64,000 nt of DNA from GCF_055900595.2 NZ_CM148325.1, one strand, 5' to 3'; positions 12,215 through 12,606 are shown, numbered from the stretch's first letter. Numbers and translations: made by a program. The notes: a model not told the origin generated them from the letters alone.

Positions 12215-12341
12215 AGGGGCTTCATCCGAATTGCGCCATTGTTGCAATGGCGGTTTTTATTGTTTTTCACGACAGTAACCGCACCTACACTGTCATGACA
12301 TTGCTCGCCCCTATGTGTAACAAATAACCACACTGTGAATG

Positions 12342-12355
12342 TTGTCTTTAATCAA
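12342..12355 (-). promoter_or_regulatory. Candidate FNR site (TTGAT-taaa-GACAA on the nrfA strand) in the nrfA/acs divergent control region (coordinates approximate)
   Basis: Near-consensus FNR half-site pair (TTGATnnnnATCAA, one half imperfect) upstream of nrfA, whose anaerobic expression is FNR-dependent; position relative to the transcription start not verified. Confidence 0.35.
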
Positions 12356-12606
12356 TTGTAAGTGCATGTGAAATACCACTTTAGAGTTAGTCAGTATCTT
12401 CCTCTTTTTCAACAGCATGCATAACTGCATGTTCCTCAAAGAATTAATCAACTTTTGTTGCTGACCTTCAAAAATTACCCTGCCGTTTATTTGCACAATT
12501 CTACTTTTGCGTGATCTGTCGCCCAAATACTAAACAAAACTGCCAATACCCCTACATTTAACGCTTATGCCACATATTATTAACATCCTACAAGGAGAAC
12601 AAAAGC

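Follow-up and report, generated by a model that had tools for sequence, protein, structure and literature searches.

The 392-bp interval between the divergent nrfA and acs genes, at positions 12215-12606 of the window (the whole 64,000-nucleotide stretch of DNA that was analysed), is almost certainly the E. coli nrfA-acs intergenic control region, which holds three sigma-70 promoters, pnrf, acsP1 and acsP2. This identification is based on the identity of the DNA to the published K-12 fragment, on the spacing of the motifs from published transcription starts, and on conservation across genera and in Citrobacter. The DNA identity, the exact motif spacing and the conservation were obtained in this analysis; protein binding and regulatory outcomes are taken from the literature. 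It should be mentioned that all published promoter experiments refer to K-12, and that the present strain differs from K-12 at position 12370. The main finding is already known in all its parts and adds nothing new.

The nrfA-acs region is among the best-dissected cases of signal integration at bacterial promoters. The signals brought together are oxygen (through FNR), nitrite and nitrate (NarL/NarP), nutrient quality (Fis, IHF and CsrA) and, on the divergent acs side, carbon status (CRP). An earlier interpretation made from the sequence alone is supported by the comparison with the published K-12 system, as regards the genes, their divergence, the FNR site and the back-to-back arrangement of an anaerobic, nitrite-responsive promoter with a catabolite-controlled acs promoter. 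A reader with only the sequence was able to position the FNR site to the exact base.

Identity and composition of the nrfA-acs region

Both flanking genes are confirmed by NCBIfam and by the annotation of matching genomes. The nrfA product scores 871 bits against NCBIfam NF008339 (cut-off 595) and Acs scores 1118 bits (cut-off 657). The distance between the two start codons (Table 1) gives a gap of exactly 392 bp, so that both the boundaries and the divergent nrfA/acs flanks given by the sequence-only reading are exact. A stretch of 621 bases spanning the region finds its match in E. coli, with nrfA and acs annotated alongside in 5413 of 5426 complete genomes, and is matched at 100% in strain Z0117EC0005. 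Compared to K-12 MG1655, the 392 intergenic bases differ at one position only, window 12370 (plus strand G here, A in K-12), and acs codon 2 carries one synonymous change. The region had also been described as visibly AT-rich, and its GC content of 39.0% is indeed well below that of the window (50.9%), nrfA (52%) and acs (56%); about 8% of 392-bp windows are equally AT-rich.

Table 1. Positions of genes, promoter elements, protein-binding sites and leader RNA elements in and around the nrfA-acs region (window coordinates).
Feature	Position	Strand	Basis or remarks
nrfA coding sequence (cytochrome c552 nitrite reductase)	10778..12214	-	start codon 12214-12212; ORF list, NCBIfam, identical DNA annotated in RefSeq
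acs coding sequence (acetate--CoA ligase)	12607..14565	+	ATG at 12607; ORF list, NCBIfam, annotation
CsrA-site GGA in nrfA codon 3 (AGG)	12205..12207	-	base 12206 = published +102; Godfrey 2017 (PMC5434802)
Second GGA, beside nrfA ribosome binding site	12225-12227	-	sequence
H2 leader hairpin, CGCCAUUG-CAA-CAAUGGCG	12234..12252	-	pnrf +56 to +74
A-rich single-stranded spacer between H1 and H2	12253..12266	-	ARN-like triplets AAAAACAAUAAAAAC; 92% identity to Citrobacter
H1 leader hairpin	12267..12298	-	pnrf +10 to +41; 11-bp stem
pnrf transcription start (+1, C)	12307	-	from p+102A = 12206; cross-checked by EHEC -7 change at 12314 and K-12 initiating C
ytcB, 18-codon ORF (MG1655 b4821, 18 aa, MHLQLIKDNIHSVVICYT)	12311..12367	-	covers FNR site and pnrf -10; ends at pnrf -4
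pnrf extended -10, TGtTACACA	12314..12322 (hexamer 12319-12314)	-	pnrf -15 to -7
Fis-like site	12315..12329		centre pnrf -15; degenerate Fis pattern, 1 mismatch; fits published Fis I
FNR binding site, TTGATtaaaGACAA	12342-12355	-	centre 12348.5 = pnrf -41.5 (class II activation) = acsP1 -34.5
acsP1 -10 hexamer (inferred)	12369..12374	+	TGAAAT here, TAAAAT in K-12; from position upstream of published start
NarL/NarP 7-2-7 heptamer pair, TACCACTttAGAGTTA	12374..12389		centre pnrf -74.5; over acsP1 start
acsP1 transcription start (weak distal acs promoter)	12383	+	224 nt before ATG; PMC2759082, Godfrey 2017 (PMC5434802)
Candidate NsrR-like half-site, AACATGCAGTT	12423..12433	-	centre about pnrf -121; 2 mismatches
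CRP II core	12457..12472		centre acsP2 -122.5; also FNR-like motif TTGCTGACCTTCAA (12458-12471)
CRP I core, CGTGATCTGTCGCCCA	12510..12525		centre acsP2 -69.5; 3 mismatches
acsP2 -10 hexamer, TATTAT	12575..12580	+	near-invariant across Enterobacteriaceae
acsP2 transcription start (C; main acs promoter)	12587	+	20 nt before ATG; 5'-RACE in PMC2759082
acs ribosome binding site, AAGGAG	12592-12597	+	sequence

The nrf promoter

The transcription start of pnrf was placed in the window by two independent anchors from the literature. The p+102A substitution turns the nrfA Arg codon AGG into AGA (Godfrey 2017, PMC5434802); the base affected is the third of nrfA codon 3 at window 12206, and +1 is therefore 12307. 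The same study names position -7, in the -10 hexamer, as the only one that separates EHEC O157:H7 from K-12. In the genome of EHEC EC4115 the sole promoter difference is found at window 12314 (TACACA to TACACT on the nrf strand), which is -7 if +1 is 12307. The minus-strand base at 12307 is a C, in agreement with the initiation of K-12 pnrf with C (Godfrey 2017). It is noted that the EHEC O157:H7 hexamer, TACACT in the genome, is printed as TATACT in Godfrey 2017; this minor discrepancy is probably a misprint. The window has the K-12 type of -10 element rather than TACACT, as an extended -10 correctly spaced from the start.

In the K-12 pnrf53 fragment (-209 to +131), FNR binds at -41.5 and NarL/NarP at -74.5, Fis I lies over the pnrf -10, three IHF sites are present, and the weak divergent acsP1 is repressed by FNR (Godfrey 2017). 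The window carries the motif TTGTCTTTAATCAA (TTGATTAAAGACAA when read along the nrfA strand), and it agrees with the FNR box (TTGAT-N4-ATCAA) at 8 of 10 positions. The sequence-only reading had located this site correctly, but its description as near-consensus was too generous given the two mismatches. A scan of the 64-kb window for TTGATNNNNATCAA with at most two mismatches returned 51 matches, with 33.6 expected from shuffling (about 0.2 per 392 bp); because such matches are common in the window, the motif alone is not significant. What gives it weight is the spacing, together with conservation. The same reading had tied its proposal to a position near -41.5 of the nrfA start, and the motif is centred on exactly that position, as in an FNR class II promoter. 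The FNR site has 0.96 identity to 15 Citrobacter sequences. For the published K-12 fragment, one base away from the window, Table 1 of the published account gives pnrf activities of 5119 units and of 54 units in an fnr mutant, a difference of ~100-fold. The published dependence of pnrf on FNR and anaerobiosis would carry over from that fragment to the present strain.

Upstream of the FNR site, a pair of inverted TACYYMT heptamers 2 bp apart was found with two mismatches. The 7-2-7 pattern has only two matches in the 64 kb at the same stringency, of which TACCACTttAGAGTTA is one, and its identity to the 15 Citrobacter sequences is 1.00. The other published sites are less easily read. A search of the region for the IHF consensus WATCAANNNNTTR with up to one mismatch gave no match, and so no independent placement of the published IHF sites. 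The numbering of the IHF sites and of most Fis sites is taken as background and compared by motif position. The NsrR-like half-site is a candidate only, since a scan with two mismatches found 21 matches in the window against 25 expected, which is the chance level; binding of NsrR upstream at nrf is reported in the title of one paper. A scan of the region with the consensus sigma-70 promoter detected no promoter; this fits three promoters that are each weak or dependent on an activator, but is uninformative as independent support for them.

The published mechanism, which explains these elements best, would run as follows. FNR at -41.5, carrying the anaerobic signal, would recruit RNA polymerase to pnrf, whose extended -10 is poor, and NarL or NarP at -74.5 would raise expression with nitrite or nitrate by displacing IHF. 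IHF and Fis would repress pnrf, with Fis over the -10 shutting the promoter off in rich medium, and CsrA at the GGA motifs around the nrfA start codon would lower translation.

The small annotated ORF ytcB overlaps these elements. It lies wholly upstream of the pnrf start, so the nrfA mRNA cannot encode it. An intact ORF is seen in the window as well as in every Escherichia sequence examined. Its start and stop are not conserved beyond the overlapping DNA sites: 12 of 15 Citrobacter sequences have ATA in place of the ATG, the stop position is variable, and those codons that are conserved fall on the FNR and IHF DNA sites. A search of ribosome-profiling preprints and a supplement, by coordinates and by peptide, found nothing to support the annotation.

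The divergent acs promoters

The acsP2 start was mapped by 5'-RACE to a C 20 nt before the acs ATG, with acsP1 starting 224 nt before it (PMC2759082, Table 1 and text), and the acs promoter sequences in the window match those printed there. acsP1 and pnrf are arranged back-to-back with their starts 76 bp apart. The FNR site lies over the acsP1 -35 region (-34.5) and the NarL/NarP site over its start, which explains the published observation that acsP1 is totally repressed by FNR in vitro (Godfrey 2017); FNR would act by covering the -35 region.

CRP-like motifs are found at exactly -69.5 and -122.5 of the acsP2 start at 12587, the layout of a CRP class III promoter, although they are poor matches with at least three mismatches and individually non-significant. 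With at most two mismatches, the CRP pattern occurs 27 times in the window (25.7 expected) and nowhere inside the region. acsP2 is reportedly a cAMP-CRP class III promoter, and acsP1 is said to be a weak distal one. We take -69.5 and -122.5 to be the CRP positions of Beatty 2003, the agreement being one of motif position. The acsP2 -10 has 1.00 identity to the 15 Citrobacter sequences. CRP I has 0.91 and is kept in every one of the Enterobacteriaceae loci examined; in CRP II it is the right half (CTTCAAA) that is kept across genera. The '-93' base lies within the first CRP site (Kinnersley 2009, PMC2763269); it corresponds to the A of CGTGA at 12514, inside CRP I, and is present as A here. The FNR-like motif within CRP II has two mismatches and shares its centre (acsP2 -122.5), so that CRP II resembles an FNR box more than a CRP box.

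The region had been credited with several TGTGA-like half-sites. Two exact TGTGA words are present, at 12334 and 12367, where 0.53 would be expected, but they do not coincide with the mapped CRP sites, and the claim was overstated to that extent. The dependence of acsP2 on cAMP-CRP has been published for the same intergenic region and would hold here by analogy. As the main acs promoter, acsP2 would be activated by cAMP-CRP at the two sites in class III fashion and damped by Fis and IHF.

A rare base at position 12370

The single intergenic difference from K-12 falls at pnrf -63, in the spacer that separates the FNR site from the NarL/NarP site, and precedes the ytcB ATG by 3 nt. Most E. coli share the A of K-12. 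The 57-mer haplotype of the window, with G, is carried by 9 of 5408 E. coli records and the K-12 haplotype by 4542 of 5410; the G is also found in two divergent Escherichia, Escherichia sp. MOD1-EC7003 and strain SCPM-O-B-8794. The change turns the inferred acsP1 -10 hexamer from TAAAAT into TGAAAT and creates an exact TGTGA; the word at 12367 is present only because of it. In -10 hexamers the A in second place is generally important, and its loss here predicts that acsP1 is weakened or abolished in this strain. That a rare change falls on this key position may be a useful small point.

Alternative readings of the FNR site

The motif at 12342-12355 and the TGTGA words might be chance matches with no regulatory role, in an AT-rich spacer whose composition is that of intergenic DNA generally. 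The scans taken by themselves lean that way: two-mismatch FNR matches number 51 in 64 kb where 34 are expected, CRP-pattern matches are at the chance level (27 and 25.7), and both exact TGTGA words lie off the mapped CRP sites. Coincidence would however have to account for a motif centred precisely at -41.5 from a start on which two independent anchors from the literature agree, for a rare NarL 7-2-7 match 33 bp away from it, and for 96% conservation of the motif in Citrobacter inside a nearly invariant 50-bp block, all in DNA that matches an experimentally dissected K-12 fragment. We regard this explanation as scarcely credible. It is also very improbable, if a little less so, that the site is mainly an operator that silences the divergent acsP1, keeping acs off anaerobically, with nrfA activation secondary. 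The location over the acsP1 -35 region and the total repression by FNR in vitro (Godfrey 2017) both agree with an operator function. Against its being the main one, acsP1 is described as weak and acs is expressed from acsP2, pnrf activity falls ~100-fold when FNR is lost, and the FNR site is intact in this strain even though the acsP1 -10 is altered at its critical second position. Activation of pnrf and repression of acsP1 coexist at the FNR site, with pnrf activation dominant.

Two evolutionary modules

To place the region among related genomes, GTDB species genomes were searched in one DNA-pattern scan, using a degenerate pattern for Acs residues 10-21, and 48 loci were obtained. A divergent nrfA next to acs is confined to Escherichia and Citrobacter (17 of the 48 loci). 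In Enterobacter, Leclercia, Raoultella, Kluyvera, Cedecea, Lelliottia, Silvania and Pseudocitrobacter, acs is present without adjacent nrfA.

Where the two genes adjoin, the block 12340-12389, comprising the FNR site, the acsP1 -10 spacer and the NarL/NarP site, is almost invariant in the Escherichia/Citrobacter alignment. Identity to the 15 Citrobacter sequences is 0.99 in the acs 5' UTR, 0.80 over the whole region and 0.63 in the distal part, 12390-12456. The Citrobacter loci carry a 35-bp insertion relative to Escherichia at 12401/12402, just upstream of the NarL/NarP site, which increases the distance from pnrf to the distal region of IHF and NsrR-like sites.

The genera without adjacent nrfA keep the acsP2 core, CRP I (GCGTGATCTG.CGCCCAAAT), the AAACAAAG block next to it and the right half of CRP II. 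Enterobacter, Leclercia, Raoultella, Kluyvera and Cedecea retain the first two of these. In these genera the similarity ends at ~12457, which implies that the region consists of two evolutionary modules. By this comparison, an acsP2 module of ~150 bp (about 12457-12606) travels with acs, and a pnrf/acsP1 module with nrfA. The sequence-only reading had two oppositely regulated promoters sharing one compact region. Its divergent control stands, but there are three promoters, of which only the weak acsP1 overlaps pnrf; acsP2 and its CRP sites form the separate module, about 150-280 bp away. The division into an acs-linked and an nrfA-linked module, seen from the cross-genus comparison, is possibly a useful small point.

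At loci of Enterobacter, Leclercia, Cedecea, Raoultella and Kluyvera, among others, where the acsP2 core and CRP I are near-identical to those of E. coli, the sequence farther upstream is unrelated and opens with a conserved GGGGTTTTTT. This element upstream of acs is probably the terminator tail of another neighbouring gene.

The nrfA leader RNA

From the pnrf start, the nrfA leader extends over 93 nt, from 12307 down to 12215 on the minus strand. Godfrey 2017 describes it as long and conserved but without a clear role. It can be folded into two hairpins, H1 and H2, separated by an A-rich spacer (Table 1). Pairing was counted over 16 distinct, closely related Escherichia and Citrobacter sequences. 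In H1, 8 of the 11 pairs vary and every cell is still paired, seven of these pairs through G-U intermediates and one by an AU-to-GC double change. On the mRNA strand pairing is kept in 173/173 cells for H1 and 126/128 for H2; on the opposite strand the counts are 129/173 and 117/128. Between 9 and 15 of 500 shuffles attain the observed values, which makes these controls moderately convincing, and since the sequences are also closely related, the covariation is suggestive and falls short of proof. Relative to its shuffles, the leader interval folds better on the minus strand (z = -2.2) than on the plus strand (z = -1.3).

From these alignments, selection on the leader structure appears to act on the mRNA strand in both Escherichia and Citrobacter. 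A search of 11900-12900 against Rfam (E <= 1) gave no leader family, its sole match being a spurious eukaryotic lncRNA in acs (E = 0.058, below the gathering score), and a literature search for sRNA or Hfq control of nrfA found none. We tentatively raise the possibility, which we think is rather less than even, that the two hairpins and the ARN-like A-rich tract form an undescribed post-transcriptional control element. Such an element could serve for Hfq/sRNA docking, for positioning of the two CsrA GGA motifs, or for stabilisation of the mRNA; in the first case the A-rich spacer would be the part that binds Hfq. The strand-specific conservation of the stems makes the unexplained role of the leader testable.

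A different function for part of this sequence has to be weighed. The hairpin and T-run at 12234-12268 could be an intrinsic terminator on the plus strand, for instance of an antisense transcript running from nrfA towards acs. In the pattern scan it has the look of a Rho-independent terminator, with an 8-bp stem containing five G-C pairs and a tail, GTTTTTATTG, and the T-run is 92% conserved. It does not stand at the end of a same-strand transcription unit, as no plus-strand gene or promoter lies upstream of the hairpin, and the selection it shows is not on its own strand: substitutions in both leader stems keep pairing through G-U on the nrfA mRNA strand and would be A-C mismatches on the plus strand, whose fold is no better than that of shuffled sequences. 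A terminator was accordingly rejected as the main reading of the 12234-12252 hairpin on the strand asymmetry of pairing, and we consider it unlikely; given the strand-specific pairing, the terminator-like hairpin of the plus strand most likely mirrors H2.

A perfect 10-bp palindrome, TGTCATGACA, is located at 12291-12300 (pnrf +8 to +17), overlapping the 5' arm of H1. All 23 sequences from Escherichia and Citrobacter have it unchanged, along with the unpaired bases that immediately precede it (+3 to +9); about 0.4 palindromes of 10 bp are expected by chance per 392 bp. The palindrome may act as a DNA operator, or may belong to the initial transcribed region or to H1.

Comparison with known systems

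The closest known system is the E. coli K-12 pnrf studied as the pnrf53 fragment in the Busby, Cole and Browning laboratories, to which the window is identical save the one base at -63. Both have FNR at -41.5, NarL/NarP at -74.5, Fis over the -10, TGtTACACA and a C start, followed by the 93-nt leader and the CsrA GGA in codon 3. The difference is the G for A at 12370, which marks the rare haplotype of the window. Unlike EHEC O157:H7, the window is without the -7 improvement of the -10 element. The E. coli acsP2 and acsP1 promoters start at the same distances from the ATG, 20 and 224 nt, and share the CRP-like sites at -69.5 and -122.5; they differ from the window in the putative acsP1 -10, which reads TGAAAT here.

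In Salmonella and Citrobacter the nrf promoters have the same block of FNR and NarL/NarP sites and keep the long leader. The Salmonella nrf promoter has an upstream insertion and has lost IHF III (Godfrey 2017); Salmonella was absent from the loci recovered by the genome pattern scan, and this comparison is drawn from that study. The Citrobacter nrf promoter differs from that of the window in its 35-bp insertion upstream of the NarL/NarP site, after 12401, and in other bases around +1.
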